In this document: positions 1-64,000 of the stretch, piece after piece
Layout: each line of letters opens with the position of its first letter
Position numbering within the stretch: the stretch's first letter is position 1
IMG/VR virus record: IMGVR_UViG_3300020050_010385
Coordinates: 31,132-95,131 of that record
Reading direction: 5' to 3' (one strand)
From: a virus
Lineage: Duplodnaviria > Caudoviricetes
DNA: 64,000 nt
The notes under the pieces: model-generated
The model's input: only the letters and a program-made list of their open reading frames with translations
What the model was told of the DNA's origin: nothing
Database searches by the model: none
Position numbers and translations under genes: made by a program

Positions 1-171
1 ATCTTGATGCGTCGTGACATTGATACCTTGTTCCAAGAACTCCCGGTTGAGTATCAAACAACCGCTGTCGGGACGTTGAATAACTTCAACTTCCAGAACG
101 TCGCCTACGCTCAATACGCAGGCGTTACGGTTCTTAAACCATTGGAAATTCTCTACATTGATAAAACATAA
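1..171 (+). CDS. Major capsid protein, C-terminal fragment (copy A; 5' end outside window)
   Basis: Frame 1 reads ILMRRDIDTLFQELPVEYQTTAVGTLNNFNFQNVAYAQYAGVTVLKPLEILYIDKT*, nearly identical to the C-terminus of 45821..46876. Confidence 0.9.
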   Translation: MLMRRDIDTLFQELPVEYQTTAVGTLNNFNFQNVAYAQYAGVTVLKPLEILYIDKT

Positions 172-184
172 TCAATAGAGAAAT

Positions 185-220
185 GGGGAGGGTAGTTTTC
201 TAGCGACTTCTACCCTCTCC
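185..220 (+). promoter_or_regulatory. Stem-loop downstream of the capsid gene (mRNA-stabilising or attenuating hairpin)
   Basis: GGGGAGGGTAG...CTACCCTCTCC; an equivalent hairpin with different sequence is at 46889..46922. Confidence 0.6.
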
Positions 221-246
221 TTCCTAAAAACAAAAAGGAGTTAACG

Positions 247-462
247 ATGTATAGAATCACCAATAGTTCCAACCGTTCCTTTATCGTTAGGGCGGAAGAT
301 GTAATCAAAGGTGCCTCAGCAGGGCATAAAAAAGAAGAAAAAATCATTGAACCCGGTAAAGGTATCGTTGAAGTCTCCGATAAGCTCGGTAAGAACCTTG
401 TGGGTTACGCAGGAATAACCGTCGTAGAAATTGTCGAAGAGAAGAAAACAAAAGGAAAATAA
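247..462 (+). CDS. Small virion-module protein after MCP (copy A)
   Basis: AAGGAG RBS; conserved with 46942..47151. Confidence 0.8.
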   Translation: MYRITNSSNRSFIVRAEDVIKGASAGHKKEEKIIEPGKGIVEVSDKLGKNLVGYAGITVVEIVEEKKTKGK

Positions 463-463
463 A

Positions 464-907
464 ATGAGTTGGACACTGCCAACCGTAGCTGAATTTAAAA
501 CTCAATTTTACCGAGACTTTCCTTACGCTCCAGATAGCGATCCGAGTAACTTGGATTACGTAATTGACCTAGACATTACTAACGCAATTAACGAGGCTTT
601 CAACAACTTTAACTACGCCTTGTTTGGTGACTTAGCTGCCAAGATATTCCTTTACTTAGCCGCTCATACCTTGGTTTTGAATATTCGTAATTCGTCAATG
701 GGGCTTTCTTCTTTGGCAAAGTTTGCTTTGGATTCTAGTTCGGTTGGTGGTGTTTCGATTTCAAACAACATCAACGATAAGTTTGCAGGGGATCCGATGT
801 TTTCTGGATACCTAACAACGGGGTACGGAAAAAAGTACCTCGACCTTGTTTACCCGTTCACAGTCGGAAATGTCGGAATGAGTTGTGGGTGGACTACCGC
901 AGCCTAA
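464..907 (+). CDS. Head-tail adaptor (DUF4054-like), copy A
   Basis: F..FP.F-like start, YLAAH, SSSVGGVSIS and TTGYGKKY motifs; ATG at 464 after AAGGA. Confidence 0.75.
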   Translation: MSWTLPTVAEFKTQFYRDFPYAPDSDPSNLDYVIDLDITNAINEAFNNFNYALFGDLAAKIFLYLAAHTLVLNIRNSSMGLSSLAKFALDSSSVGGVSISNNINDKFAGDPMFSGYLTTGYGKKYLDLVYPFTVGNVGMSCGWTTAA

Positions 908-915
908 GGAGTTGA

Positions 916-1467
916 ATGAGTTCCAAGGTTACCAAAATCGGAAATTCAGGATCGGTTAAATTAGACTTAACCAACCTGAAGTCTTTGATTAAAAACATCA
1001 ACTCTCAGTACGTGGTCAAGGTAGGAATCCTTGGGGGAGACGCTTCCCAAGCGCATCAAAGAAAAGAGACGGGTGCTCCGGCTAAGGGTGGCGGTCATAA
1101 AAAAGGCAAAAACGATTCCCCCACAACCAACGCCGAAATAGGCTTGGCGCATGAAAAAGGGATTAAGTCCAAAAACCTACCCCGACGTTCTTGGTTAGAA
1201 GTTCCTCTCCAGGATCACCTGAACGAGTATTTTAAGAAACTTGGTCCAGAAGTTATTTCTGATATGTTAGTTAATCAACCCAAGTTAGCTTTTCAGAATT
1301 TAGGGTTTGTTTGTGAGCAAATTATTCTCAAGGGGTTCGAGACTAATGGTTTCGGGAAATGGAAGGCTCTTAAACAGTCTACCATTAATGCTAAAGGTTC
1401 GGATCGGATTCTCGTTGACACAGCACAACTTAAAAAATCCATAACTTCTGAGGTAGTGACCAAGTGA
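916..1467 (+). CDS. Neck/virion morphogenesis protein, copy A
   Basis: VKVGIL, AHEKG, PRRSWL, STINAKGS...LVDTAQLKKSI motifs typical of myovirus neck/tail-completion proteins. Confidence 0.75.
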   Translation: MSSKVTKIGNSGSVKLDLTNLKSLIKNINSQYVVKVGILGGDASQAHQRKETGAPAKGGGHKKGKNDSPTTNAEIGLAHEKGIKSKNLPRRSWLEVPLQDHLNEYFKKLGPEVISDMLVNQPKLAFQNLGFVCEQIILKGFETNGFGKWKALKQSTINAKGSDRILVDTAQLKKSITSEVVTK

Positions 1468-1871
1468 TTAAGAACGGTAAAGATAAAGCTTTTGGACAAT
1501 CTTCTGCAGGCTTACCCGACGTTTCTCCTGCCGTGATGAACCTGTTTCAACCTGTGACCGTGGGCATTATTAAAGCCACACAGGTGGGGGGTTACACTCA
1601 AACTATTGTTACCGAACGGATCCGGACAAAGGGCGTTCGTATCCAAAACCCCAATCAACTGGTAATGTCAAAGACGGGGGAAAGAATTTGGGACTCGGTC
1701 GAAATCTACTTTTTGAACGATATTAACCTAGCCGCCGACGATCTTTTTATCTTCCAGGGAATTCAGTATCGAGTAGTTGCGACCGAAGAATGGACCGAGT
1801 ATGGTTACAATCGTTATTCAGTTGTCCAGGATTACACTAAAATTTATAACCCGTTACCAAATGTCCTATGA
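1464..1871 (+). CDS. Head-closure/connector protein, copy A
   Basis: Position; D..F.G..YRV...EW..YGY motif; conserved in copy B. Confidence 0.6.
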   Translation: MIKNGKDKAFGQSSAGLPDVSPAVMNLFQPVTVGIIKATQVGGYTQTIVTERIRTKGVRIQNPNQLVMSKTGERIWDSVEIYFLNDINLAADDLFIFQGIQYRVVATEEWTEYGYNRYSVVQDYTKIYNPLPNVL

Positions 1872-2440
1872 TTAAATCCGACGGTATACCTCAAACTTCT
1901 CTTGACCTTTTGCGTTTGATTTTAATTAATCAAATGGGGTTGGAAGGCGACCGAGTCAATGTCTACGACGAAAAGTGGAAGATCCCTGCTTATGAGGATT
2001 TGTTCATTACCCTTGAATACCGTAACGCACGTTGTATTTCTAATCGTAATACCTTTGTTTCTACGGGCGGTGACCCCATTGAAGAGCAGGACGTTAACAT
2101 GCTGGAAAACATTACGGTGGGAGTTTTCTCCAGGGATCGTTCTGCAACGCAACGCAAAGAAGAAGTTTTGATGGCAATCATGTCTCAGTATGCTCAATTT
2201 ATCCAGGAGTCTTATGCATTCAAAATAGCGAGAGTGGGTTCTATCGATGATCTTTCAAGCTTAGAGGGTGCCGCAATGCTGAAAAGATACGACGTTAACT
2301 TAACCGTCTTTGCTTGGTACCAGAAAATTATTACACCCCGATATATTTCACCACCTTTCTTAGTTCGTGTAACAGCGAACGATTCGGGTAATGGGAAAAT
2401 GACAAATCAATTTACGCAGATATTAACTCAACCAACATAA
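1868..2440 (+). CDS. Tail terminator/completion protein, copy A
   Basis: Immediately upstream of the sheath gene; conserved in copy B. Confidence 0.6.
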   Translation: MIKSDGIPQTSLDLLRLILINQMGLEGDRVNVYDEKWKIPAYEDLFITLEYRNARCISNRNTFVSTGGDPIEEQDVNMLENITVGVFSRDRSATQRKEEVLMAIMSQYAQFIQESYAFKIARVGSIDDLSSLEGAAMLKRYDVNLTVFAWYQKIITPRYISPPFLVRVTANDSGNGKMTNQFTQILTQPT

Positions 2441-2453
2441 AGGAGTACGATGA

Positions 2454-3818
2454 ATGTCTACACTTCCGTTGTCTAATGTAATTTCCGTGAACGTCTTCTT
2501 CCCACCTACGGGAGTCGGGGCGTTTAATGTAAACAACTTAGCTTTGTTTACTTCTGATGCTTTTTTAAGTAATCCTGATAACGACGCCTATCGGGTTTAC
2601 ACTTCCGCTCAGCAGGTAGGGGTTGATTTCGGAACCACGACTGAAACCTACGAACAAGCCGTTGCAGTTTTCTCCCAGCAACCGAATATCTTAGCTGGTG
2701 GTGGTACGTTGATCATCTTCCCAAGCTTTGTTAATAGCGCAATCAACGCAGTTAGCATTGCAGCAGGTGGTACGGGATACGTGGTCGGGGATGTTCTTAA
2801 CGTGGTTCAGGGGGTTGCTTACGGTGGTGTGGTTCGTGTATCGAGCGTTTATGCAGGGGCGGTCACGGGAGTTACCGTGGTTTCGGGCGGTGCAGGGTAT
2901 TCTGCAGCAGTCGGTTTAACTACCACTGGCGGTACGGGTAGTGGATGCACCATTACTATCTCGACAGTTACCACTGAAACTTTAACGCAAGCTGTCGCTC
3001 GTGTGTCAGAAATGGTCTTCTTCTGCGGTATCATTTCCACGTCGTATGGTGCTAATTCAACCTGGGCAGCGTTGGCAACGGCGATTCAATCTTACGGTAA
3101 TAAGCTTTTGTTCTTACCTTCGAACGCTTTGACCGATATCCCTGGAGTTTTCACTACGATTAAAAATGCAACGAATTACTACACACGTTGTTTGTATTAC
3201 TCTGGTACGGCTTTGCAAGGTCGTTTGTTCGCAGCTTCTTATGCGGCTAGACTCTTGTCCGTGGACTTTACGGGTTCCTTCACAGCCATCACAATGAACC
3301 TGAAACAACTTTCGGGTGTCACAGCTGACGCAGGGATCAATACAACTGTTGCAGCGTTGTGCGTGACGGCAGGGGTTGACGTGTACGCTTCTTACGCCAA
3401 CGTTCCAGCAACCATCTCAAACGGAGCAAACAAATACGCTGATCAAGTTTTCAACCTTATCTGGTTCGTTCTCGCTCTCCAGGTAGCTGGGTATAACGCT
3501 TTAGCTACTTTGTCAACTAAGATTCCTCAGACAGATAGCGGTATGAATCTTTACAAAGGTGCTTTAAAACAAATCTGTGAGCAAGCAGTAGCCAACGGTT
3601 ACTTGGCTCCCGGGACTTGGACAGCGGTTGATACCTTCGGGAATCAGGCTGACTTCCTTAATAACATCCTTTCCAAAGGTTACTATATCTACTCTGCTCC
3701 GATCAATCTACAAACCGTTGCAGCAAGAGCAGCACGTCAAGCACCACTCGTTCAGATTGCAGTTAAAGAAGCCGGAGCAATCCAGTCCAGCGTCATCAAC
3801 GTATATGTTAATCCGTAA
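2454..3818 (+). CDS. Contractile tail sheath (DUF3383-like), copy A
   Basis: LPLSNVISVNV start; KIPQTDSG, AVANGYLAPGTW, GYYIY, AGAIQ motifs. Confidence 0.88.
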   Translation: MSTLPLSNVISVNVFFPPTGVGAFNVNNLALFTSDAFLSNPDNDAYRVYTSAQQVGVDFGTTTETYEQAVAVFSQQPNILAGGGTLIIFPSFVNSAINAVSIAAGGTGYVVGDVLNVVQGVAYGGVVRVSSVYAGAVTGVTVVSGGAGYSAAVGLTTTGGTGSGCTITISTVTTETLTQAVARVSEMVFFCGIISTSYGANSTWAALATAIQSYGNKLLFLPSNALTDIPGVFTTIKNATNYYTRCLYYSGTALQGRLFAASYAARLLSVDFTGSFTAITMNLKQLSGVTADAGINTTVAALCVTAGVDVYASYANVPATISNGANKYADQVFNLIWFVLALQVAGYNALATLSTKIPQTDSGMNLYKGALKQICEQAVANGYLAPGTWTAVDTFGNQADFLNNILSKGYYIYSAPINLQTVAARAARQAPLVQIAVKEAGAIQSSVINVYVNP

Positions 3819-3838
3819 TTCTAAAGAAGGAGAAAATA

Positions 3839-4294
3839 ATGTCAATTGTAGCATTAACTGGAAAAGACACTATCACGATCAATGGTCGTAATCTTAACGA
3901 CTTTGCGGATGGTGTGGTTGCAGAAATTACATTCCCAAATGACCTAGTGCAAATGAAAACGGGGAAAAATGGTAATACGCTTTACGGTTTGAACAACACA
4001 GGAAGACAAAGCGAAGTTAATTTGAGAGTCATTCTTGGTTCATCGGACGACATCTTTTTTAACAATCTACTCCTGAATATGCAGAGCAACTTTGCAGGCT
4101 TTGCCTTGATGGTCGGTACTTTCGTTAAAAACGTTGGGGACGGTGCTGGAAATGTGAAGCCCGTAACCTATGTTATGTCGGGTGGGGTTTTAAAACGTCC
4201 GGTCAGTGCAATGGAGAACTCTGACGGTGACACGAATCAGTCAGTTTCCGAATGGCACTTAATGTTTAGCAACGCTCCTAGAGCGATAGGTTAA
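3839..4294 (+). CDS. Tail tube protein, copy A
   Basis: 151 aa after the sheath; conserved in copy B. Confidence 0.8.
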   Translation: MSIVALTGKDTITINGRNLNDFADGVVAEITFPNDLVQMKTGKNGNTLYGLNNTGRQSEVNLRVILGSSDDIFFNNLLLNMQSNFAGFALMVGTFVKNVGDGAGNVKPVTYVMSGGVLKRPVSAMENSDGDTNQSVSEWHLMFSNAPRAIG

Positions 4295-4298
4295 GCCC

Positions 4299-4676
4299 AT
4301 GGAACCACTTAAAAAGACACTCGAGTCCGGAGTGGAACTGACAGTCAGTTTGGCTTCTTTTCCAGAAGGACACCGCTTGTTTAAAGCGGTAACAAAAGAA
4401 TTACAAAGTGTCGACTTGGCTGAGGACACCGTTCAAAAACTGTCCATGCAGTTAGTTTCCAGTGACGCAATCGAACAAGCTTTGTGGCCTTGCATGGCAC
4501 GGGCGACGTATAACGGTTTAAAAGTTAACCAAGAATTATTTGAAAATGCAGAAGCTAGATGTGACTTTCTGGAAGTCATGAAGGAGGTGCTGGCTTATAA
4601 CCTCGTCCCTTTCTCAAAAAACCTAGGTTCATTGTCAACGGCCATATTCCGAAAAGATACAGATATCCTAACGTAA
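4299..4676 (+). CDS. Tail assembly chaperone (short, G form), copy A
   Basis: Between tube and tape measure genes; contains slippery heptamers. Confidence 0.75.
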   Translation: MEPLKKTLESGVELTVSLASFPEGHRLFKAVTKELQSVDLAEDTVQKLSMQLVSSDAIEQALWPCMARATYNGLKVNQELFENAEARCDFLEVMKEVLAYNLVPFSKNLGSLSTAIFRKDTDILT

Positions 4677-4852
4677 GTATAAACGTTGACGATTCAGTAA
4701 TTATTGTTCTTAGGTTAAGTAAACACGGATATGGTAGTATTAAAGAATTAATGGAAATGTCTTCGGAGTGGATTTTAGCAGCACTGGAGTATGACAACTT
4801 TGTTAACGAGTTAGAAAGTGCTTTTGTAGAACTGAATAAGGACGCTCGATGA
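4299..4852 (+). CDS. Tail assembly chaperone, -1 frameshifted (GT form), copy A
   Basis: In-phase C_CCT_TTC (4607-4613) and A_AAA_AAC (4616-4622); the -1 frame is open to TGA 4850-4852, overlapping the TMP ATG; same in copy B. Confidence 0.75.
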
Positions 4853-5886
4853 AAATAGCTGAATTGTTTGCAGAAGTTGGTTTTAAGTTTGACTCCATTA
4901 AGTTGAGAGAGGTTACTAAGTTGCTAGGTAATCTTAATCTTTCTTCCGTGGTGGGAGCGACTTCACTAGCTACCCTAGGAAAGGGGATTGCTTCTATTAT
5001 GGATCAAGCAAGTAAGGCTTCCGTAGCGTTACTCAATCTAAGAGAAGCCACGGGTTTAGATCCCCTTAGACTCCACCAACTGGATGTTTACTTCCAGAAG
5101 TTTGGAGCCAGTGCGGGAGAAGCCCAACAAGCAATTTACAATTTAAACAAGTTACGTCTCGAAGTTCTACAGGGTAGAGGTGACGCTCAACCGTTCATTA
5201 TGACAGGGTTGTCTCCTACAACCGACACCCTTAAGCTACTGGATCAAATTCATGAAAAGTTTAGTGATACGTCCTTCTTGAAAAACTGGGCAGGATCTTT
5301 TGCTCAGGGTGCTCAGTCTCTTCAAGAAATGCGTGCTGCCTGGAAAGACATGATTGCAAGTCAGTTCGGTTTTACTTCAAGTATGTTACGGGGTTTAGAT
5401 CAATCTAATGAAAAATGGAAAGATCAATTAAAGATATTGGGTTTGAATCTGGAAGAAGTAAAAGCAAACGCTGAGGTGCATGAAAAATGGGTTGGTGCCA
5501 TGAATGACCTCAATCTTGAGACACAGAAATTAGTTACCAACTTAACTCCGATTGCTATTGAGGTTTTAAAAATTGTAGAAGCTACCACACGTTGGGTAGA
5601 CAATACAAAAATTTTAGAGAACTTGTTGAAACGAGGAGTTACCAACGTTAAAGCTTACGGGTACATGGCGCACGAGGTTGGGAACAAAGGGAGTCAGTTT
5701 ATAAAAGATATAATCCCTAACCTCAGAGGGATGCTGTTACCAAGCGTAGATCGTCAAATGAAACAAACAAACAATGTTACGGTGCACGTCAATGCTAACA
5801 ATCCCGAAGAGTTTGTAACTAAATTTGATTCAGTATTTAAAAAATATCTTTCTAACGCTGACATTCAATTCGGACAACAACGATGA
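4849..5886 (+). CDS. Tape measure protein (short, 345 aa), copy A
   Basis: MKIAELF..VGF start, helical composition, follows chaperone genes. Confidence 0.75.
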   Translation: MKIAELFAEVGFKFDSIKLREVTKLLGNLNLSSVVGATSLATLGKGIASIMDQASKASVALLNLREATGLDPLRLHQLDVYFQKFGASAGEAQQAIYNLNKLRLEVLQGRGDAQPFIMTGLSPTTDTLKLLDQIHEKFSDTSFLKNWAGSFAQGAQSLQEMRAAWKDMIASQFGFTSSMLRGLDQSNEKWKDQLKILGLNLEEVKANAEVHEKWVGAMNDLNLETQKLVTNLTPIAIEVLKIVEATTRWVDNTKILENLLKRGVTNVKAYGYMAHEVGNKGSQFIKDIIPNLRGMLLPSVDRQMKQTNNVTVHVNANNPEEFVTKFDSVFKKYLSNADIQFGQQR

Positions 5887-6773
5887 GCCTAAATTTAAAC
5901 TTTGCTTCAAAGAAACCTAACTTAGTTCAGAATGCAGCCAATCTCCTTTCTTCAGTTGTTAACCAGGCTATCGTTAGACCTCTTGGAATGCCGAACGTCA
6001 TTGGTGTTTCTGGATTCGTAATGGACATTCTGGAGGATGAAGAAATAAGTTTAGATTCGGACATTACTGATCATTACGTTGAACAGAACTACGCTATTCA
6101 AGATCACATAGCTTTGAAACCCGTGCGGTTTTCCCTCAAAGGATTAGTGGGAGAACAGGTAGACTCTTTACCCAATTCGCTCGCTACTATCTTTACCCAG
6201 GTAACAGGGCTGTCTACGTTAGGGGGACTGACTCCGCAGTTTAACGTTCAGGATGCTCAATTCTACGCAAAGGTGAATGACGTAGTTCAGCTTGGAACTA
6301 ACGTTTTGAAACAGGTTAAGAATGTCTTTCAACTTTTCAATCAGTCTTCCACAACCACCAACAAACAACAAACGGTGTACCAATTCTTCTACAACATGTG
6401 GAAGACTCGACAACTTTGTTCGGTAGAAACTCCTTTTGCGGTATTTGAAAACATGGCTATTGAGTCCGTCCGGGCATTCCAATCTGGTGACACGGACATG
6501 ATTAGTGAATTCGTGGTTACTTTTAAACAGATTCAAACCGTTTCAACCGTAGTTTTTTCGGGTAACGTGGGATCGATGGTTTCACAAAACCTCGGATCAA
6601 TTTCTAACCTACCCCGTGAACCCGGAGGACGTTTTGAGCAGATGGTTTCTTCTCCAGTAAGCTTGGGAACCGATCCGGGTAAAGCTAATGACGTAAACGG
6701 TAACTTGATTTCCGTAGCAAATACTTCTCAAAACCTATATGTTCAACAAGCTGGTGCACCGAATGAGTATTAA
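5883..6773 (+). CDS. Baseplate/tube-initiator (Dit-like) protein, copy A
   Basis: ITDHYVE...IQDH..LKP and VETPF..FENMAI motifs. Confidence 0.7.
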   Translation: MSLNLNFASKKPNLVQNAANLLSSVVNQAIVRPLGMPNVIGVSGFVMDILEDEEISLDSDITDHYVEQNYAIQDHIALKPVRFSLKGLVGEQVDSLPNSLATIFTQVTGLSTLGGLTPQFNVQDAQFYAKVNDVVQLGTNVLKQVKNVFQLFNQSSTTTNKQQTVYQFFYNMWKTRQLCSVETPFAVFENMAIESVRAFQSGDTDMISEFVVTFKQIQTVSTVVFSGNVGSMVSQNLGSISNLPREPGGRFEQMVSSPVSLGTDPGKANDVNGNLISVANTSQNLYVQQAGAPNEY

Positions 6774-6776
6774 TCT

Positions 6777-7148
6777 ATGAAACAGATAACCTCTTTAACG
6801 AATGATGCAAATCAGATTTTAGCTGTCATCCTGGACGATGGAACAAAGGTTAGTATTAATTTAACCTATTGTCCGAATCAATTGGGGTGGTTTTATTCTT
6901 TAACTTACGGGGAGTTTTCGGTGAACAATCGGAGAGTGGTTAATTCCCCAAATATGTTAAGACAATTCAGAACCTTTATTCCTTTCGGTTTAGCTTGTTT
7001 AGTCGTTGATGGGTATGAGCCGATTTACCAAAGTGACTTTGTGGACGGAAGGGCTTCGTTGTATATTCTGAATGCTGAGGATTTAGTAGAAACTGAAACT
7101 CTGATTACCGTAACGTTACCGAACTTTGTCGGGTATCCTTTAAACTAA
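6777..7148 (+). CDS. Small baseplate protein, copy A
   Basis: Position between initiator and hub; conserved in copy B. Confidence 0.6.
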   Translation: MKQITSLTNDANQILAVILDDGTKVSINLTYCPNQLGWFYSLTYGEFSVNNRRVVNSPNMLRQFRTFIPFGLACLVVDGYEPIYQSDFVDGRASLYILNAEDLVETETLITVTLPNFVGYPLN

Positions 7149-8089
7149 TGACACTTATAACTAGTACCAATAAATTCCAAAGAACTTACACAATGCAAAT
7201 CCAAGGCATTGATGGTACTATTTATAATGTGGGTTCGGAAAATGGTGGTTCTCTTTTGACCTTAGAGTTTTCCGTTAAACGTGACGTGTTAGCTTCGGCT
7301 CAATCGGGAACTTTCCGCATTCGAAATCTTAACCCCAGTGTTCGATCCCAGATCTATAAAGACTGGTTTGACACCGGAAGGTTACCAACGGTGATCGTTA
7401 AAGCTGGATACCTCGGGACGCCTTTGTCCACTATTTTCAACGGGATTGCTTTGTCGATAACCTCGTATCGTGAAGAAGGTGGAACGGACTTTATTACCGA
7501 AATCGAAGGGCAAGATTACTCTTTGGTAATGTCCAATAGCTTTTCGAACTGGACAATTGGGGACAACAACAACCCTGTAAATCAGGAAGACGTGATTAAT
7601 CGTTTGATTGGAGATCTCAAACTTACTGCCCAGAAGTACGGTAAGACTCTCGCTACGGGAATAGTGGGGGGTTTTCTTGCAAACCGTTACACGTATACGG
7701 CTAACGATTACACCTGGAATTTGTTGCAAGTTGAGACCAATCGCCTTTCATACATTGACAATGGTAAAATTTATTGCCTCCCAAACAACTATGTTTTTGA
7801 AGGCGACGTTAACTTAGTTTCTTCCGAGACGGGTTTGTTGGGAAGTCCTCGTAGATACCAGAGCAATTTGATTGCAGAAATGATCTTTGAACCGTCAATT
7901 ATTCCTGGACAACAAATTTACTTAGACACCAATCTTGACAAATCGTTTAATAGTTCTAAGAACGGAACCTATAAAGTTACGGGCGTGCAGCATGCGGGAG
8001 TTATCTCTTCAGCTGTGAGCGGTAAATGTAAAACCTTAATAACCATGCAAATTATAGGGACTCCGTTTGTAGCGAGTTTTGGTTTATGA
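7148..8089 (+). CDS. Baseplate hub protein, copy A
   Basis: IRNL, KAGY, IFNG, TGLLGSP, P.IIPG, G.YKV..V.H.G motifs. Confidence 0.78.
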   Translation: MTLITSTNKFQRTYTMQIQGIDGTIYNVGSENGGSLLTLEFSVKRDVLASAQSGTFRIRNLNPSVRSQIYKDWFDTGRLPTVIVKAGYLGTPLSTIFNGIALSITSYREEGGTDFITEIEGQDYSLVMSNSFSNWTIGDNNNPVNQEDVINRLIGDLKLTAQKYGKTLATGIVGGFLANRYTYTANDYTWNLLQVETNRLSYIDNGKIYCLPNNYVFEGDVNLVSSETGLLGSPRRYQSNLIAEMIFEPSIIPGQQIYLDTNLDKSFNSSKNGTYKVTGVQHAGVISSAVSGKCKTLITMQIIGTPFVASFGL

Positions 8090-10644: not shown

Positions 10645-10648
10645 GTCT

Positions 10649-11251: not shown

Positions 11252-11260
11252 GAGACTTGA

Positions 11261-12106: not shown

Positions 12107-12115
12107 GGATCTTAT

Positions 12116-50983: not shown

Positions 50984-50987
50984 GCCC

Positions 50988-51365: not shown

Positions 51366-51541
51366 AAATACATGTTGACGAATCAATAGTTATTGTGCTT
51401 AGGTTAAGTAAAAATGGATATGGCAGTATTAAAGAATTAATGGAGTTACCATCTGAAATGGTTTTAGCAGCTTGGGAATATGATAACTTTATTCAGGATT
51501 TAGAAAGTGCCACTATGGAATTAAATAAGGACCAAAAATGA
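50988..51541 (+). CDS. Tail assembly chaperone, -1 frameshifted (GT form), copy B
   Basis: CCCTTTC 51296-51302 and AAAAAAC 51305-51311; -1 frame open to TGA 51539-51541. Confidence 0.75.
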
Positions 51542-53465: not shown

Positions 53466-53468
53466 TCT

Positions 53469-55806: not shown

Positions 55807-56168
55807 TCATTAGAGCATTAGATATAAATCACGATTGGACATTTGGTAAGGGTAAAGAGAACTACCTATCAGCTCAATTAGCTATTGCTGAGAATATCCA
55901 GACGAGAATATTATCATTTTTTGGTAATTGCTTTTTTGATATGTCAGCTGGTATTGAGTGGTTCACTCTTTTAGGTACTCCTAATAGTGACCAGCAAATC
56001 CTATTAAATGTCAGAGCTATAATCCTTCAATCCTATGGAGTTGTAAGTGTGAATAGTTTAACACTAAATTCTACTAACTCTAGTCGTAGAGCAACTCTGA
56101 CTTACAACATAAATACTATCTATACTCAAAATTATACCCAAACCTTAGAGGTAGTCCCAAATGTCTAA
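55803..56168 (+). CDS. Baseplate wedge (gp25-like), copy B
   Basis: Homolog of 9111..9476. Confidence 0.7.
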   Translation: MIIRALDINHDWTFGKGKENYLSAQLAIAENIQTRILSFFGNCFFDMSAGIEWFTLLGTPNSDQQILLNVRAIILQSYGVVSVNSLTLNSTNSSRRATLTYNINTIYTQNYTQTLEVVPNV

Positions 56169-57336
56169 TCAAATAACAGCAGCTGGAATTCAAATTGAAA
56201 CCTTTGAACAAATTGTAGCAAATATCACTAATGGTACTTCAGATACTCCTGGTTTGATTCAGATTTACGGGGCTGATATTAACGTGGCCTCAAATTCACC
56301 AGATGGACAAATGATTAATATCTATGCTCTTTCAAAAATGGATATTTTAAATCTCTGTGTAGCTATCTATAATTCCATGGATCCAGATCAAGCTGTGGGA
56401 GTATCATTAGACCGTATTGCTCAAATTTCAGGATTGACAAGGAAGCCGGGAACTTATACACAAGTGGCCATCGATGTGGTAACTAACCAGAGTGTTAACC
56501 TGAACGGACTTGATACTTCCACTCCCTTTACTATACAGGACTCTAATGGTAATTTATTCTACCTTATTACTTCAGCTTCTCTTTCTTCTGGAACTACTAG
56601 CCTTAGTTTCCAATCAGCAGCAATTGGTTTTATCCAGGTATTGGCAAATACTTTAACTACTCCAGTAACAATTGTAGCCGGGGTAGTGAGTGTAAATAAT
56701 CCAGCAGTTCCTACTCAAGTAGGTACGAATCAAGAGACGGATGCTAATTTCAGATTACGTCGACAAGCTTCTACTGCTTTCCCAGCACAAAGTTCTTTGA
56801 AGGCTCTCTTTTCAGGACTAAATTCTCTGGTAGGAGTAACTGAGGCTGTAGTTTATGAGAATACTACTAATGCAGTAGATGCTGATGGTATTCCAGCACA
56901 TGGCATTTGGGTAGTTACTGACGGAGGTACAGCAGCACTAATTGGAGAAACAATTTATACTTATCGGAACTTAGGTATACCGATGAAAGGAACCTTAACT
57001 TACGTTATTACTCAAGTAGATCTTTCAACTATTACTATGCAATATGATTCAGCAGTAAATGAAAATCTTTACCTACAGGCAACTCTAGTTTCCATTAGTG
57101 GTTCAGCCATTGATCGGACGGCAATAAAAGAAGCTCTAGTAACTAACTACATTTTAGGTATTTATGATCCAGCAGATGTTTCAACTCTAAATATACAGAT
57201 CAGAGCTATTAACCCAGATGTAGTTTGCTCAGGATTAGGAGTTTCTAATGATGGAGTTACCTGGGTAAATCTTTTGAGTCCCTTATCTAAAAAGAATAAA
57301 TTTGTTCTATCAACCGCTAGAATAACGTTGAGCTAA
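56161..57336 (+). CDS. Baseplate J-like protein, copy B
   Basis: Homolog of 9469..10644. Confidence 0.88.
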   Translation: MSNQITAAGIQIETFEQIVANITNGTSDTPGLIQIYGADINVASNSPDGQMINIYALSKMDILNLCVAIYNSMDPDQAVGVSLDRIAQISGLTRKPGTYTQVAIDVVTNQSVNLNGLDTSTPFTIQDSNGNLFYLITSASLSSGTTSLSFQSAAIGFIQVLANTLTTPVTIVAGVVSVNNPAVPTQVGTNQETDANFRLRRQASTAFPAQSSLKALFSGLNSLVGVTEAVVYENTTNAVDADGIPAHGIWVVTDGGTAALIGETIYTYRNLGIPMKGTLTYVITQVDLSTITMQYDSAVNENLYLQATLVSISGSAIDRTAIKEALVTNYILGIYDPADVSTLNIQIRAINPDVVCSGLGVSNDGVTWVNLLSPLSKKNKFVLSTARITLS

Positions 57337-57340
57337 AGCC

Positions 57341-57943
57341 ATGACACTAACTGAAGCACTAGACTATTATGCAAATCAATTAATTATCCAATATGCCGAA
57401 TTACCTAAGGCAAAAGATACCATTAAGTGCCTAGTGAACAATGCTGCTTGTGATGGATTAGTCTTTTCTCTTCAAGATGCTTTTAATCTAGACACAGCTT
57501 CTGGTCAACAACTAACCATCTTAGGAAATATTGTAGGAGTTCCCAGAGAAATATTTGGCCTTGATCTTACCCATGAATTTTTTAATTTTACTAGGTACTC
57601 AGGAGTTCCAGCTAGTATTGGATTTAATCGCTTTAGTACTCCAACAGATACTTACTATATTTCACGTTGGCAAACTACAACTTCATATACCACTACAGAC
57701 TTTGAATTACTATCACTAATAAAGATTAAGATCATTGCTAACAATAATTATACTTCTTTGAAAACTATTAAGGAAGCTTTATATGAGATCTTTGAAGGAG
57801 CAATAGACGTGGTAGATAACCTTGATTATACTATTACTTATAATCTACAAAATCCGTACCATAACGTTGGAACAATTTGTGCTTTTCTTGGCAACATACT
57901 ACCTAAACCAATGGGCGTAGGTATCACGATTGTTAATATCTAG
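57341..57943 (+). CDS. Baseplate protein (DUF2612-like), copy B
   Basis: Homolog of 10649..11251. Confidence 0.8.
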   Translation: MTLTEALDYYANQLIIQYAELPKAKDTIKCLVNNAACDGLVFSLQDAFNLDTASGQQLTILGNIVGVPREIFGLDLTHEFFNFTRYSGVPASIGFNRFSTPTDTYYISRWQTTTSYTTTDFELLSLIKIKIIANNNYTSLKTIKEALYEIFEGAIDVVDNLDYTITYNLQNPYHNVGTICAFLGNILPKPMGVGITIVNI

Positions 57944-57952
57944 GAGAATTAA

Positions 57953-58798
57953 ATGGCAAAGCTACTTAGAAAAACACTATTACAATTCGGGAGCACAGTA
58001 AATGCTGGATCTGAAATTGGTCAGTTTGGTTCTTATGCTGCTCCAATATATTCAGCAGATATTGCTACTCTACAAGCAGGAACTGCCTGGCCAAGAGGTT
58101 GGGCAGCTGAAACAATAGCAACCAATCGACCTTTTCTTGAAGACATGAATGCAGTAGACTATGTCTATGGCTATATGCTGGCCTACTTACTTCAAATGGG
58201 TATTCCCGAATATGACTCAGCAACAACCTATTACCTTGATAGCTATGTTCAGATTGCTGGACAGATCTACCAATCACTTGCAGACAACAACACTGGTAAT
58301 GCTCCTGCTTCTTCTCCTGCAAGTTGGCAGCCTGGTATTGGTGCTAAGAACACTGAGACTTCAGGGGTTGTAAAGATGTTTGCTGGAGCAATTGCTCCTA
58401 CTGGCTATTTAATATGTAACGGTGCCGCAGTTAGTAGAGCGACCTATGCAGCCCTTTTTGCAATTTGCGGTACAACTTATGGTGCAGGAGATGGGGCAAC
58501 AACCTTCAATATTCCAGACTTAAGAGGAAATGTAGCAGTAGGATATAAAGCAGCTGATTCTGATTTTGGTACTCTAGGAGCGAACCCTGGAGCAAAGACA
58601 CATACCTTAACTACCTCAGAAATGCCAGCACATAGTCACTCTACCTGGTATGCTCATAACTCTGGAAGCGGTAGTGAATCTCCGGCAGGTGGTAGTAATA
58701 CCAATAGACAAGACGCTTCTACTTCAACTGAAGGTGGTGGAAATGCACACAATAATATTCAACCTTCATTGGTTCTTAATTACATCATCAAAACTTAA
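57953..58798 (+). CDS. Tail fibre with collar domain, copy B
   Basis: Homolog of 11261..12106. Confidence 0.85.
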   Translation: MAKLLRKTLLQFGSTVNAGSEIGQFGSYAAPIYSADIATLQAGTAWPRGWAAETIATNRPFLEDMNAVDYVYGYMLAYLLQMGIPEYDSATTYYLDSYVQIAGQIYQSLADNNTGNAPASSPASWQPGIGAKNTETSGVVKMFAGAIAPTGYLICNGAAVSRATYAALFAICGTTYGAGDGATTFNIPDLRGNVAVGYKAADSDFGTLGANPGAKTHTLTTSEMPAHSHSTWYAHNSGSGSESPAGGSNTNRQDASTSTEGGGNAHNNIQPSLVLNYIIKT

Positions 58799-58807
58799 GG
58801 ATCTTAT

Positions 58808-59179
58808 ATGCAGAATAATTGTGAAGTAGCTATCGATATCGTAAGAGGAACAGATTTTTATTTACCAATTATTTATATGGTAAGTGTAGAATCGATCGGA
58901 CTAAAATATCCAGTTAATATCACTGGGTACAGTGTGCAAATGCAGGTAAGACCAACGGTGGGTTCTACGGGTACACCACTAGTGAATATTTCTACGGCAC
59001 TGGGTACAATTTTAATTGATGGACCAAATGGAAAAATAGAATTATTAATCCCTAAAAGCGTAACCACTACTCTTCCAGTAGGAAGCTGGAGTTATGATGT
59101 TTTAGTAACAAACGTAAGTGGGTGGACAGAACAAATTATTTTCGGGACGGCTAATGTTATTGAAAGGACTACTAAATGA
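58808..59179 (+). CDS. Ig-like fibre adaptor, copy B
   Basis: Two aa differences from 12116..12487. Confidence 0.6.
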   Translation: MQNNCEVAIDIVRGTDFYLPIIYMVSVESIGLKYPVNITGYSVQMQVRPTVGSTGTPLVNISTALGTILIDGPNGKIELLIPKSVTTTLPVGSWSYDVLVTNVSGWTEQIIFGTANVIERTTK

Positions 59180-59691
59180 ATCCAGGAATAGTGCTACTAC
59201 AACAGCAGAAAGTAATTGAGGCACTATCTCAATTTCCCATTCTACCCCAGTATCGAAACTTCTCGATTGTCGCTACTTCAGACGGACAAACGGATTTTGA
59301 ACTTGACGACTATCCGGTATTGACTGGAATTATTTCCGTGAACATAAATGGGATAGCTCAGGATCCTTTAAACGGAGATTACACTATTTTGGACAGTACC
59401 CTGACTGTAAGTCCTGGAAGAGACATCGGAGACAAGGTGGCTGGTTTTTATCAAGTCATGACTCCGGTGGTGGGGGCTAATGTTCTTAATTTTGCCTCGT
59501 ACTATGAATTGGTCGGCACAGCTAGCAAGACCGTATTCACACTTTCTTTCCAGCCTAACCCTATTGTGTACGTAGCAGTGAACGGAGTTGTACAAGACAA
59601 CTTAGACTATACAATAAATGGTTACACATTAACCTTGAACGTAGGATTAGATATAAACGATAAACTATATGTAGTCGGAATTAACAGCTAA
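59176..59691 (+). CDS. Fibre-associated two-repeat protein, copy B
   Basis: One aa difference from 12484..12999. Confidence 0.6.
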   Translation: MNPGIVLLQQQKVIEALSQFPILPQYRNFSIVATSDGQTDFELDDYPVLTGIISVNINGIAQDPLNGDYTILDSTLTVSPGRDIGDKVAGFYQVMTPVVGANVLNFASYYELVGTASKTVFTLSFQPNPIVYVAVNGVVQDNLDYTINGYTLTLNVGLDINDKLYVVGINS

Positions 59692-59701
59692 GGAGAAACA
59701 A

Positions 59702-62509
59702 ATGAAAAAATGGTTTTTAAGTTTACTTGCAATCCTACTTTCGTCATCTTTAGCTTTTGCTGATACGAGAGTCCCAGCCAAGGACGTGACAGTTAATACG
59801 TCTACCTTCGGAGACAATATACCTGTCAACGCAAACACAGTCCAAAAGGCTCTTCAGGCTGTCAACGATGCCACCTTTGGTGGTACCCCAGCAGGTTCTA
59901 CTGGGCAGTTTCAGTATAATAACGGAGGGATCTTTGCTGGCGGTAACATGCTTTACACGGACGGTACAAACATCGGGATTGGTAATGCTTCCCCAACCCA
60001 GAAACTGGACGTTACTGGAACTGTGAAAGCCACCACGTTTAGTGGTAGTGGTTCGGGATTAACCTCCATTCCTGCAGCGCAACTTTCTGGACAGGTGCCC
60101 TTAGCTAACGGTGGTACTGGTCTTTCTAGTGCTGCTGATGACGCTACTGTGGTATCTAATGGTACAGCATTTCAGGCTACGATACTTCCTTCGTGTACTG
60201 ACTCTGGAGGGAACCATTTGAACTATGATGCTACTACGAATTCATTTAGTTGTGGAACTAGTAGTGGAGGAGGTAGTCAGGTTACTGGAGCCTTCACACA
60301 GCTGACATCTTGTCCAGCTGACATTGTAGCTTATATGGCAGCATTACCAGAAAGTACAAGAGTTCAATTTCCTGCGGGATGTTCATATACTCTTACTACC
60401 GCTTCAACGGTTGAAATTCCTAGCGGTGTGTGGGTAGACTTTGCTAATACTCTATTTAATAGAACAGCTACGGCTGCAGCTATTATTACAGCTACTACCA
60501 AAGACGTAACTAAACCTATGTATATTGGTAATGTCCGTTGCACGGGAGCCTTTGCTACTTCGTGTATAAGTATTAATCAAAATGCTGGTACGGTGGGTAG
60601 CGAAAATGCTTTCATATTAAGGAATATTCAGTTTGATTTTACTCCCGATGCCTCCATGACAACTGTTTACGGTTTTGTTATTAACGATTCAGGTTACGTA
60701 ATCGATGGAGTACGTGGGAATATTTTAACTTCTTCAGCAACAACAAGCGCATGGGGTATTCGTACTCCGATGAATTCAACTGCAGAAGCAGACATGTCGG
60801 GGTCAATCAATGATTGGAACGTTAGAGTTGATTGCCAATCCTACGCACCGACTTTCTGTAGAGGTCTTGATGTTGCCTACCAGAACGCATCCGCAGGCGG
60901 AAGTTTATTTAATACGTATGCAAAGGTAAGTAATTTTTATAGCTATGCTCACTCTGGTGGTGCGACCGGAACAGGTGAAGCCTGTAAGGTTACCAATGAC
61001 TCAGGGCATGGAACAGTAAACGAAACCTGGTGGTCTAACGGGGTATGTGATGGGGTATCTTCTGACTTCCGTGACGGTTCTGGATTTGGTGATCCAGTAA
61101 TAGCCCATATTGATAACGTGGAATTCACGAACGGTAAATACTCCCTCAAATCAACGGGTACTTATACTCTAAAGGGATCTTCTGGAAAGACAAGTAACTT
61201 TTGGACAATTAGTTCTAGTGCAACTACTTCAATAGACTCACAGAGCTACATAGCTCCTTTTATAGCCTATGTTGTTGCTACCAACGATCGAGTTTACTTC
61301 CCACCATCAATGCAATTCAATGCGGCTCTCTCTATTACTAAGTCGGTACACCTGATTGGAAGCGGTACTGATGGATGTACTCACATAGCTACTTACGGAG
61401 GAACAAACACACAGCTTTTCAATGTTACAGCAGACAACGTTTCTATTGAAAATTTCTGCTTAGATCTTATCGGAGGTTGGAGCGGAATCCTGGTTAACGG
61501 TACGGGGGGAACCAGCCTTGCTAGTGTTAATCTCAGGAATATTAAAATTAATAAACCAACTGCAAGCGGTAACAGTACGGGAATTATATACAATGACGCT
61601 GGAGGATCAATCTATAATCCAGTAATCAACATAGCTTGTGCCTCTGGAACCTGTCTCGGTATTTCTAGTACACAAGCTTCTACTTTAGATGCGGTCTCCA
61701 CTCTGAGTGTGTATAGTCCGAATATTATCATTCCAGCGACTACCGGGGTATCTAAGGCGTTTGAATTTACGGATACCGGAGCTACGTTTGCTTCTACCTT
61801 CAACGTGTACGGAGGATACTATCGTACCAGTAAATCCACAGGATCAGCCTACGGTATTTACGCTAGTGGTCCACTGATTACGGCTAACCAATACGGTCTC
61901 ATGGGAGCAGCTGATACCATAAACACGTACGCAGTAAATGACGCCGTCATCAATAGCAATTCTTCTCCGTTCATTTCTCCACTTACTATCGGAGGATCTG
62001 GAATTTCTGCCTCAGGGTTCTCTTCATTCGCAGGAGGAATTAATCTACCCAGTGGTCAAGAATACGCTTCAAACGGAGTACAACTTAATTACACTATCTC
62101 GGCCTACGCTGCAGGTACCGTGTACTCATTAACTAACGCTTCAGCAGCAGTAACCTTTGGGACTACTTCTCCAGTAATAACCATTGATCAACCTGGAACG
62201 TATCGATTAAACGCTAGTGCACAGCTTAAGTATAATGCTGCTACATTTGCAGCACCGCAAACAGCCACGTGTCTTCTCTATCGTACGAACAATACCGCTG
62301 GAGCATTAACCAATGCCACACGTACGGTGGACTTAAGAATACTAAGTGCAATCACGGATAGTGCAGGCTTAGTTGCTATTCCAGAAATTCAGTATATCAC
62401 AACGAATTACAACGATCAAATCCAACTCTATTGCGGAATGTCAGCGGCTACTGGAGGAGGAACGGTGGACGTTGTTTCAGCTAATGTTATTGCTAAACTT
62501 GACTATTAA
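59702..62509 (+). CDS. Signal-peptide-bearing tailspike/adhesin (allele B), probably two beta-helix segments
   Basis: First about 120 aa near-identical to 13010..15379; centre unrelated and Cys-rich; last about 130 aa homologous (Y.LTNASA...[29 protein letters not shown]). Confidence 0.75.
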   Translation: MKKWFLSLLAILLSSSLAFADTRVPAKDVTVNTSTFGDNIPVNANTVQKALQAVNDATFGGTPAGSTGQFQYNNGGIFAGGNMLYTDGTNIGIGNASPTQKLDVTGTVKATTFSGSGSGLTSIPAAQLSGQVPLANGGTGLSSAADDATVVSNGTAFQATILPSCTDSGGNHLNYDATTNSFSCGTSSGGGSQVTGAFTQLTSCPADIVAYMAALPESTRVQFPAGCSYTLTTASTVEIPSGVWVDFANTLFNRTATAAAIITATTKDVTKPMYIGNVRCTGAFATSCISINQNAGTVGSENAFILRNIQFDFTPDASMTTVYGFVINDSGYVIDGVRGNILTSSATTSAWGIRTPMNSTAEADMSGSINDWNVRVDCQSYAPTFCRGLDVAYQNASAGGSLFNTYAKVSNFYSYAHSGGATGTGEACKVTNDSGHGTVNETWWSNGVCDGVSSDFRDGSGFGDPVIAHIDNVEFTNGKYSLKSTGTYTLKGSSGKTSNFWTISSSATTSIDSQSYIAPFIAYVVATNDRVYFPPSMQFNAALSITKSVHLIGSGTDGCTHIATYGGTNTQLFNVTADNVSIENFCLDLIGGWSGILVNGTGGTSLASVNLRNIKINKPTASGNSTGIIYNDAGGSIYNPVINIACASGTCLGISSTQASTLDAVSTLSVYSPNIIIPATTGVSKAFEFTDTGATFASTFNVYGGYYRTSKSTGSAYGIYASGPLITANQYGLMGAADTINTYAVNDAVINSNSSPFISPLTIGGSGISASGFSSFAGGINLPSGQEYASNGVQLNYTISAYAAGTVYSLTNASAAVTFGTTSPVITIDQPGTYRLNASAQLKYNAATFAAPQTATCLLYRTNNTAGALTNATRTVDLRILSAITDSAGLVAIPEIQYITTNYNDQIQLYCGMSAATGGGTVDVVSANVIAKLDY

Positions 62510-62537
62510 ATTAATTAATATAAAGGAGATTTAAAAT

Positions 62538-63806
62538 ATGAAACTAAGTAAAGTATTTATAATCACTCTGCTAATGCTACTTCAAACCTCATTGGCTCAT
62601 GCTTTGACTACGATGTGGTCACTAAGTAGTGCAGGTAATACGGTAACGGCCAATCATTACTTGTCTTTTGGTCAGGGTGGGGGTGGAGATGCTAGCAACA
62701 CTAAAAGAAGAATGGTAGTTGCTGGAAACATGAGTCTCAGGAACCTAAGTATCTCAGCGGCTACAGCACCAGGTGGGGGGACTGGAGCCATAGCTTATAC
62801 GGTGATTGTTAATGGTTCAGCTTCTTTGTTAACCTGCACAATGACCGACCCTGCAACTACCTGTACGGATAGTACCAACGTAATTAATCTTGTACGTGGT
62901 GACACAGTATCTTTACAAGCTACAACCGCAGCCGGAGCACCTACATATAGTGCAATTACTGGCTACGTTATAAAGGATATTACCAATACAAATCGTAATG
63001 ACTTCGTTGGTTGTCCAGCCTCAGCTACAATTTTTAGTGCTTCAGCTACAAATTACCTCGGTATCAATAGTAGTTGTGCTCCAAATGCTACCGAAGGTGG
63101 TGGGCTAATTCCCATCGTGGCACAAGTTTCACAGCTTTATGTTTACCTAGATGGTTCAGCAGGGGCAGGCGCATCAGGGAAATCTTACACGATAACCTTA
63201 CGAAAAAATCAAGTAGATACAGCTATTACCTGCGTAGTACTCGAAACAGCTACCACATGTCAAGATACAGTAAACAGTATAACTACGGCACCGGGAGATA
63301 TCCTTTCATTAAAAGTAGTACCTGCTAATACGCCCACAGCCAGGTACATATCCGCAGGTGTAAAATTGACTTCCAGTATTCCTGGAACTTTCGTAGTTCC
63401 CAGTGGAGCAGCGTCACCTTCGGTAAGTGTCGTTCACTATTCAGCCTTCTCAGGAGGAGCAACGACTACTGCTTCCACTACTACGAATAATCAATTATTA
63501 CCTGGTAATCTATATGCCATGGGATTTTATGCTAAGGCAGCCACGGCTCCGGGAAGTGGAGCAGGGGTACAATCTTGGACATTTAATTTAAGAGACCATA
63601 CTAACTCCTTGACTGACCTTACAGGTTGTGTGATATCGGAAGCAGCAACTACGTGTAGTGAAAGTTTCCGTGAAGCTTTATCAGCTTCGAACTTTGCAGT
63701 GAACTATCAACTTACCCCTTCAGGTACACCCGTAACTTCAACGATTAGATATGGTACGGTATTAACTTTTAACGCTCCGGGAACAACAACAATCAAAGGT
63801 TACTAA
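62538..63806 (+). CDS. Signal-peptide-bearing beta-rich repeat protein (allele B)
   Basis: MKLSKVFIITLLMLLQTSLAHA|L; repeats with C...C pairs; ends IKGY like 15411..16667. Confidence 0.7.
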   Translation: MKLSKVFIITLLMLLQTSLAHALTTMWSLSSAGNTVTANHYLSFGQGGGGDASNTKRRMVVAGNMSLRNLSISAATAPGGGTGAIAYTVIVNGSASLLTCTMTDPATTCTDSTNVINLVRGDTVSLQATTAAGAPTYSAITGYVIKDITNTNRNDFVGCPASATIFSASATNYLGINSSCAPNATEGGGLIPIVAQVSQLYVYLDGSAGAGASGKSYTITLRKNQVDTAITCVVLETATTCQDTVNSITTAPGDILSLKVVPANTPTARYISAGVKLTSSIPGTFVVPSGAASPSVSVVHYSAFSGGATTTASTTTNNQLLPGNLYAMGFYAKAATAPGSGAGVQSWTFNLRDHTNSLTDLTGCVISEAATTCSESFREALSASNFAVNYQLTPSGTPVTSTIRYGTVLTFNAPGTTTIKGY

Positions 63807-63807
63807 T

Positions 63808-63984
63808 ATGATAGAAAACGTAGTCTTGACTATTCCTCCAGAAAAATATAAGTTCATGGTAAAGACCCTAGAATCTTTTAAGTCAGGAATACGTTTATTA
63901 AACCTAAATGCACTTTATAAACAAAGCCTAATAAAAGAACTCCACACCATAGAGAGCATCATTAAAACTAATAGGAGTCAGTGA
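63808..63984 (+). CDS. Small hypothetical protein (58 aa), copy B
   Basis: Same protein as 16669..16845. Confidence 0.7.
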   Translation: MIENVVLTIPPEKYKFMVKTLESFKSGIRLLNLNALYKQSLIKELHTIESIIKTNRSQ

Positions 63985-64000
63985 TGGAATTCACTCAAGA

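Follow-up and report, generated by a model that had tools for sequence, protein, structure and literature searches.

Gene content and organization of the two units

The DNA analysed here (the window, 64,000 nucleotides) comprises positions 31132-95131, the right two-thirds, of a virus record of 95,131 bp. Record coordinates are obtained by adding 31131 to the window coordinates, which are used in the following list unless stated otherwise:

1..16740, plus strand: tail part of the unit A virion module, with head-completion genes followed by sheath, tube, baseplate, fibre and adhesin genes (from sequence comparison and ORFs)
Record 22153-31131, upstream of the window: head and packaging part of unit A
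11928..13370, plus strand: near-identical linker with genes for 123 aa and 171 aa proteins and the fibre N-terminus; left flank of the receptor-binding cassette
13010..16667, plus strand: receptor-binding cassette of unit A, 789 aa fibre (beta-helix) and 418 aa adhesin
16741..16861, plus strand: 121 bp exact repeat, copy 1, covering the 3' part of a 58 aa gene and the start of the next gene; left edge of R
16741..21907 (record 47872 to ~53038), ~5.2 kb: shared segment R, with small plus-strand genes at 16842-18251 and then minus-strand genes including that of a Collar-domain protein
21908..37019, minus strand: early/replication arm of unit B (X2), matching module B in GC3 and tetranucleotides
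37076..63879 (whole module), plus strand: unit B virion module, whose packaging and head part carries TerS (Terminase_2), TerL (Terminase_3), GT2, methyltransferase, portal, MuF and head genes
Within 37076..63879, plus strand: tail part of the unit B virion module, with sheath, tube, baseplate, 935 aa fibre and 422 aa adhesin
59702..63806, plus strand: receptor-binding cassette of unit B, fibre and adhesin, matched by a Logan contig
63880..64000, plus strand: 121 bp exact repeat, copy 2, whose end coincides with the end of the record

In the full record two units can be distinguished. Their structural modules are located at record 22.1-48.0 kb and 68.2-95.1 kb, and upstream of each lies a separate early arm on the minus strand that encodes a PolA, a primase and a thymidylate synthase of its own. 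A previous reading of the window from its sequence only had counted one replication arm and one terminase-portal block between the two module copies. This is correct for the window and does not hold for the record, where a second set is found upstream of the window. The further supposition that the rest of the contig might hold a second, diverged replication arm, giving a total near 94 kb, agrees with the organization of the 95,131 bp record.

The virion genes are those of a contractile-tail phage: together with a sheath of the DUF3383 family (PF11863) we found tube, sheath initiator, wedge, Collar baseplate, portal, MuF and Terminase_3 genes. Pfam domains identified on identical genes in sister loci are Dit_like, Sheath_initiator, Phage_Wedge1, Collar and Beta_helix. 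The early arm located upstream of the window (X1) encodes RusA, a RepO-like protein, a 747 aa primase-like protein, PolA (633 aa), DUF669, AAA_24 and DUF2130 proteins, dCMP deaminase, thymidylate synthase, dUTPase and ERCC4. The arm of unit B (X2) encodes PolA (604 aa), primase, a DnaB-like helicase, thymidylate synthase, dUTPase, a PD-(D/E)XK nuclease, a pyrimidine-dimer glycosylase and a cell-wall hydrolase. Both arms are collinear and weakly similar to each other, the PolA pair being 25% identical. The leftmost 6 kb of the record (V1), carrying RepO, RusA, DUF5681 and a TerL fragment, group by composition with a podovirus-type phage described below. V1 may belong to that phage or to genome A.

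Pfam scans of ~50 early and junction proteins revealed no integrase or recombinase, in agreement with the absence of an integrase noted before, and among the scanned early proteins there were no excisionase-like or repressor-type families. No tRNA was found, the 95 kb contain no host genes, and no repeat is common to the start, middle and end of the record. These results bear on the idea that two related temperate phages were integrated side by side as tandem prophages and extracted as one provirus. Units that follow each other head to tail at intervals of one genome length are what such an arrangement would give, but neither the lysogeny genes nor the tRNA, host genes and repeats were found, the replication genes of both arms (PolA, primase/helicase, nucleotide metabolism) form lytic-style sets, and the complete relative RXKB01000042.1 closes on itself. 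We consider this origin highly improbable. In a separate consideration of candidates, a Mu-like transposable phage, a tandem prophage and a true duplication were ruled out by the presence of PolA and primase, the absence of a transposase or integrase, and the composition.

Divergence between units A and B

The two ends of the window were compared by BLASTN. Positions 1-5583 align with 46706-52272 at 78.1% identity, 5758-13371 with 52450-60063 at 82.8% identity without gaps, and 16578-16861 with 63717-64000 at 88.8% identity. Over 1-16861 and 46706-64000 the virion modules A and B are collinear with a DNA identity of 78-83%, as expected from the earlier observation of the same genes in the same order. 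Self-comparison of the whole record extended this homology to record 22.7-48.0 kb and 69.3-95.1 kb, so that not only the tail but also the terminase, portal and head genes are included. Across the whole record the recurring blocks are 73-83% identical. All 27 ORF pairs are open, and their lengths are mostly equal (sheath 454/454, hub 313/313, J 391/391 aa), which again agrees with what had been read from the window. Protein identity between A and B ranges from 72 to 99% when fibre and adhesin are excepted, and amounts to 87% for the capsid proteins. The dN/dS ratio lies between 0.02 and 0.08, and most genes show saturation of dS.

Both halves have 53 exact matches of at least 25 bp in common, the longest of them 121 bp. 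The pattern of a homo-concatemer, in which the same k-mers are repeated across units, was not found. No repeat of at least 10 bp connects the start and the end of the record, and there is no identical start and end sequence of the kind that terminal redundancy (DTR) of one genome would produce; together with the 73-83% identity of the recurring blocks this upholds the earlier view that the arrangement is not ordinary terminal redundancy. The differences between A and B represent real evolutionary divergence under purifying selection, and neither sequencing noise nor terminal redundancy. Intact ORFs, low dN/dS and saturated synonymous sites show that both copies are old, functional and independently evolving versions of one module.

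Receptor-binding cassettes and their flanks

The region in which the copies had been described as differing, the adhesin cassette, is almost unalignable between A and B. BLASTN returned one sole, weak match (14971-15207 versus 62104-62340, 67.6%). On the protein level the fibres (789 aa in A, 935 aa in B) are 47% identical, and the adhesins (418 aa and 422 aa) 41%. The receptor-binding region of unit B was also encountered in a Logan contig from an unrelated run, the last 2983 bp of which are 100% identical to it.

On both sides the cassettes are bordered by sequence of far higher similarity, and the near-identical tracts reported for the window were recovered at these positions. Within the left linker, window ~12058-13370 (in 11928-13370) is 95-97% identical to 58620-60063 when assessed in 300 bp windows, dS is 0.11-0.18 as compared to saturation elsewhere, and exact matches reach up to 114 bp. 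To the right of the cassette follow the 58 aa gene (dS 0.09) and R (~99% identical), and positions 16741-16861 are identical to 63880-64000 over all 121 bp. This pattern points to a recent exchange of both cassette flanks between A and B.

In a third sample we found a locus (L005) in which the A cassette follows a baseplate of B type (98.9% identical), the switch from B to A being located inside the left linker. L005 could have arisen by a cassette swap in nature or by a further switch of the assembly. The arrangement resembles tail-fibre exchange as in T-even gp37/38 and in mosaics of the P2/Mu type, where divergent receptor-binding genes likewise lie between highly conserved flanks, and the recombinant L005 fits this likeness. 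In contrast to these systems there is neither an invertase nor an inverted alternative cassette. The exchange between A and B is deduced from sequence alone, and L005 may itself be an assembly switch. The A and B cassettes would thus be an ordinary case of modular host-range exchange, well displayed and not new.

Composition of the virion modules and early arms

Over 24 orthologous structural genes, mean GC3 is 42.0% in A and 28.8% in B, and the value is higher in A for every one of the 24 pairs (Wilcoxon p = 1.2e-7). The early arms show the same split: GC3 is ~40% in X1' (record 6200-22000) and ~28-31% in X2, so that each arm matches its own module. Tetranucleotide frequencies of X2 correlate with those of virion module B (S_B) at r 0.91 and with those of virion module A (S_A) at r 0.66. 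Since GC3 and tetranucleotides of the arms follow the neighboring modules, the natural partition of the record would be [X1' + S_A] and [X2 + S_B], with the crossing inside R. Genome B would then close as a ~47.1 kb circle in the order X2, S_B, R and back to X2. The corresponding closure of genome A, from R back to X1', was not seen in any contig.

Saturated dS and a GC3 difference of 13 points, seen in all 24 genes, argue that A and B did not have a common replicon during their divergence. They are best regarded as two long-separate genomes, and the comparison between them is valid as one of two natural strains, which is how the sequence-only reading had proposed to treat it if the two proved to be separate.

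Genome size of related phages

All of the 120 best sheath relatives are found on contigs of at most 51.5 kb, many of them at 45-51 kb. The nearest complete relative, RXKB01000042.1, is an uncultured contig of 45,199 bp that was binned with a Dependentiae MAG. An exact terminal repeat of 93 bp closes it, and its plus strand carries a single structural module in collinear gene order while the early arm is encoded on the minus strand. At the level of the capsid protein it shares 67-68% identity with both A and B. From the contig sizes of the relatives and the closure of RXKB01000042.1, the unit genome is therefore ~45-50 kb with one virion module. The record, with 95,131 bp, corresponds to a multiple of this length, while the relatives have a single module, and we infer that a 95 kb molecule would be too large for such a capsid.

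Among GenBank phages, megablast gave no DNA match to window 1-16000. The Bdellovibrio phage phi1422, a myophage with a DUF3383 sheath, is comparable in its genome size class (45.4 kb), and its sheath is 40% identical over 66% of the length; the kinship is distant, however, without a match at the DNA level.

These data also allow an assessment of whether the record could be a true phage genome of at least ~95 kb that encodes two diverged virion modules and makes two virion types. Intact ORFs under purifying selection throughout both modules and the differing receptor-binding cassettes would be in keeping with such a genome. It is difficult to reconcile, however, with family members of 45-51 kb that have one module, with the GC3 gap and saturated dS, which speak against a shared replicon during divergence, and with the end of the record inside a repeat. 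Moreover, 25 kb direct repeats with exact tracts of up to 121 bp would be unstable. A genuine two-module genome is therefore extremely improbable.

Record ends, segment R and sister assemblies

The longest exact match between A and B in the whole record is the 121 bp repeat, at record 47872-47992 and 95011-95131, and its second copy ends on the last base. The tract at window 16655-16861, which had been singled out as a possible joint, thus contains the left edge of the ~5.2 kb segment R, and the record stops where a second R begins. We found no assembler k value equal to 121 bp that is tied to a documented pipeline. At the opposite end the record opens with ~113 bp of foreign sequence. Matches to a 129 kb sister record and to a Logan contig reach only down to base 114-118, and record bases 1-124, when reverse-complemented, match a different part of the sister record. 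The foreign tip cuts a TerL gene of 497 aa (phrog_38), which is complete in the sister record, to an ORF of 309 aa. Because it is a truncated TerL, this ORF found only distant relatives when used as a metagenome query. The tip is in all probability a mis-join, and both ends of the record look like graph ends and not like genome ends. A circular record was considered and rejected: there is no terminal overlap, and in the sister record module B is followed by R and not by position 1.

The sister record was identified by exact-protein look-up, which located the adhesins of A and B together on JGI Ga0206652_1000010 (129,313 bp, sample 3300020049), with their order unchanged and a spacing of 47.1 kb. 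It is collinear with our record and 99.7-99.9% identical to it from base 114 to the end, and then runs on past the end of our record into a second copy of R after module B (L007). In the sister record R is thus located downstream of both the A and the B module, at ~99% identity. The two copies differ at 11 sites, of which 6 lie 197-359 bp from the left edge and 5 lie 431-466 bp from the right edge, while the central 4.3 kb are identical. Such a pattern fits a single collapsed repeat edge that was traversed twice and in which phasing was possible only near the unique flanks. In our record, L005 and L008, variants are scattered over the initial ~1.3 kb of R, the portion covered by those loci. 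Furthermore, the pairing of alleles and flanks is inconsistent between the assemblies: the allele at record 52572-52607 is followed by X2 in our record and by a run of N in the sister record.

This run of 99 N directly follows the second R, and across it the sequence steps back by 122 bp onto an 82% identical homolog. N run and back-step fit an unmerged scaffold join; alternatively, the N may have been introduced by the data provider as masking and would then not mark a scaffold gap. Upstream of X1 and on the same strand, yet another set of packaging and head genes, the third in the sister record, is podovirus-type (TerL phrog_38, T7-type portal, major head protein). With this module the sister record is a chain of at least three phage segments, namely two myophage units and the podovirus-type module.

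Of the six contigs that contain the A adhesin, four are 20-50 kb long. The two that were examined, with 43.9 and 43.3 kb, carry X1' genes and are without the RepO region; they therefore span at most one unit. In pattern scans of IMG/VR, neither the sheath peptides nor a 37-mer of the 121 bp repeat gave a match, and near-identical records may lie outside the scanned set.

Origin of the 95 kb record

We consider it very probable that the 95 kb record is an assembly artefact in which two related phage genomes of ~47 kb were joined via the near-identical ~5 kb segment R. A short-read metagenome assembler would have traced one path in the sequence graph formed by a mixture of related myophages that lack an integrase. 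Each of these phages would have a genome of ~47 kb with a virion module on the plus strand, a few small genes, and an early arm on the minus strand. Genome A would consist of X1' and module A and genome B of X2 and module B, as separate old lineages that have in common a recently exchanged, near-identical R just downstream of the fibre genes. The path would then have led through A into R, out of R into the early arm of B, through B, and would have stopped on its second meeting with R. Segment R is most likely the spot at which the assembly path crossed from genome A to genome B, and the walk across it would not be backed by single molecules.

This interpretation draws on several findings. The final base of the record coincides with that of the longest exact A/B match, which opens R, so that both a shared identical tract at the crossing point and a contig end where this tract recurs were found. 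The sister record has a collapsed-looking R, a run of 99 N and a podovirus-type module; the foreign first ~113 bp of our record truncate TerL; the relatives do not exceed 51.5 kb and include a complete one of 45.2 kb with a single module; and GC3 is split in such a way that the early arms match their own modules. On the other side, the order A-R-X2-B is found in two assemblies from different samples, as a real molecule would give. Related samples taken through the same pipeline would reproduce the same graph and hence this same order. If the record had been derived from long reads, the argument for an artefact would be sharply weaker.

Comparable cases have been described. IMG/VR contigs of more than 2x the expected length were found to hold repeated genomes and were judged probable metagenome-assembly artefacts (PMC8116208), and concatemers of several small phages were reported from wastewater assemblies (PMC10747093). 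Like the concatenated IMG/VR contigs of the CheckV analysis (PMC8116208), the present record has ~2x the expected length, a period of one genome and no host genes. Those contigs, however, repeat one genome and are caught by a k-mer frequency >1, whereas here the units are ~80% identical, the early arms differ and nearly all k-mers are unique, so that only the length check would flag the record. With the chains from wastewater (PMC10747093) it has in common that different phage genomes appear to be mis-assembled through shared or repeated regions, and the sister record is such a chain. Terminal repeats were blamed there, whereas in our case the genomes would be bridged by a shared ~5 kb module that is internal and follows the fibre genes.

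The sequence-only reading had offered two explanations: a real heterodimeric molecule, possibly making two virion types, or an assembler chimera. The evidence supports the latter, and positive support for the former was not obtained. In its more general form, this alternative assumes co-infection and recombination in R, leading to a head-to-tail A-B intermediate or a co-integrate circle as a transient intracellular form. Phages with a Terminase_3-type terminase commonly package by headful from concatemers, and a terminase of this type is present. A and B do exchange DNA, as seen in the 1.4 kb linker (95-97%), in R (~99%) and in L005 as a recombinant of B chassis and A fibre, and the order A-R-X2-B recurs in two samples. 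Short reads, however, cannot separate a dimer from two monomers across an identical segment of 4-5 kb, so the record gives no support to the dimer. With a capsid protein identity of 87% between A and B and of 67-68% to the 45 kb relative, the dimer could hardly be a virion genome. Recombination between A and B also leaves the podovirus-type module and the N run of the sister record unexplained, and the tip of our record is itself an apparent mis-join. Natural replicative concatemers of headful phages such as P22, SPP1 and T4 are similar in their head-to-tail units, their Terminase_3-type large subunit and the lack of an integrase, but they consist of copies of one genome, while a hetero-concatemer could arise only after co-infection and recombination and would be expected to be scarce and short-lived. 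Because of the family genome size, the signatures at the contig ends, the chain-like sister record and the differing codon composition, we regard a heterodimer as unlikely, and as a heritable or packaged form it would be less likely still. That the A-B tandem is a real co-integrate replicon, abundant enough in cells to have been assembled in two samples and serving as a standing intermediate that reshuffles receptor-binding cassettes and early arms, seems very unlikely.

We also considered an artefact in which the false step lies elsewhere, with S_A-R-X2 as one real genome and wrong joins between X1 and S_A and between X2 and S_B. In the sister record, X1 and V1 run on the same strand into the podovirus-type packaging module, and X1 could belong to that phage. 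X2, however, fits S_B and not S_A by GC, GC3 and tetranucleotides (r 0.91 versus 0.66), X1' genes and the A adhesin are found on the same 43-44 kb contigs in other samples, and no long repeat is present at the junctions of early arms and structural modules at which a path could cross. A displaced false step is thus very improbable, and a crossing within R remains the preferred interpretation.

Implications

The double-length phage is most likely not a molecule and deserves little weight as a biological claim. A hetero-concatemer of this kind escapes the k-mer-repeat test and would be counted as a complete or large virus of 95 kb, and such contigs would inflate inferences on genome size, gene content and the production of two virion types. 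A useful filter would combine the period of self-similarity at the protein level, the genome length of the family and a contig end located inside a repeat. What survives as a biological result is a pair of phage lineages that show saturated synonymous divergence and a 13-point gap in GC3, and yet appear to have freshly exchanged the flanks of their receptor-binding cassettes.

Composition, packaging genes and fibre cassette of the two units

Units A and B of the record, most likely two separate phage genomes of ~47 kb, differ strongly in base composition at third codon positions: GC3 is 42.0% in unit A (window 1-13000) versus 28.8% in unit B (46706-59700), and it is higher in A for all 24 of 24 orthologous genes. 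For phages which are still exchanging DNA, this is a large shift in composition. The front ends of the packaging block are also unlike between the units (window 37254-40417 in B versus L002:7153-10021, upstream of the window, in A). Unit B encodes a Terminase_2 small subunit of 236 aa and, after TerL, a GT2 glycosyltransferase of 234 aa, whereas unit A carries at the corresponding places a 149 aa protein, for which no family match was found, and an ORF of 159 aa. A Methyltransf_24 gene is retained in both.

In a contig from another sample (L005:1-12854, JGI 3300020047) the baseplate is B-type with 98.9% identity, while fibre and adhesin are A-type. The switch from B to A falls within the near-identical tract on the left flank of the fibre/adhesin cassette (window 11928-13370; 95-97% identity). 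Either the fibre cassette was swapped naturally, or the assembly crossed over at exact tracts, which reach up to 114 bp.

Collar-domain proteins and the early arms

Collar-domain and homing-endonuclease-like genes in the window
8086-9114: 342 aa Collar-domain baseplate protein, unit A
11261-12106: 281 aa Collar-domain baseplate protein, unit A
54778-55806: 342 aa Collar-domain baseplate protein, unit B
57953-58798: 281 aa Collar-domain baseplate protein, unit B
18338-18760, minus strand: small Collar-domain protein, 140 aa, directly after the fibre genes
24245-24670, minus strand: NUMOD4/HNH_3 homing-endonuclease-like gene, 114 aa (sister-locus annotation)

The 342 aa protein is a paralogue of the 281 aa protein from its own unit (39-42% identity over ~160 aa), and for the pair in unit B a DNA repeat of 147 bp is still detectable at 72% identity. 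The 140 aa protein shares 35-38% identity with part of the 342 aa protein; its gene lies where the early arm ends and is possibly a fibre-related gene, either spare or alternative.

The homing-endonuclease-like gene sits between the dUTPase and the PD-(D/E)XK nuclease of X2, the early arm of unit B, and the DNA of the sister locus is the same as that of the window at this gene. The shared segment R (at window 20985-21419) and the left part of the other early arm, X1 (at L001:4920-5355), are otherwise unrelated but have three collinear patches of ~40 bp in common, sited at gene boundaries (90-97% identity; one with an exact core of 36 bp). These patches could represent regulatory elements that have been conserved, or scars left by recombination.

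Terminase fragment at the record start and recurrence in unrelated runs

A 309 aa ORF at the start of the record, upstream of the window (L001:1-996), corresponds to the N-terminal portion of a large terminase (phrog_38) of 497 aa, which probably belongs to a different phage of podovirus type. Genes for a T7-type portal and a major head protein come after this terminase in the sister record. In place of the terminase end the 309 aa ORF has a foreign tip of ~113 bp, matching L007:18331-18454 of the sister record in reverse.

Both the B adhesin (100% identity across 2983 bp) and V1, the leftmost ~6 kb of the record (87-98% identity), are present in unrelated sequencing runs (L008 and L025 from Logan SRR33038083, L026 from SRR26425195). 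These phages therefore recur beyond the JGI sample series.
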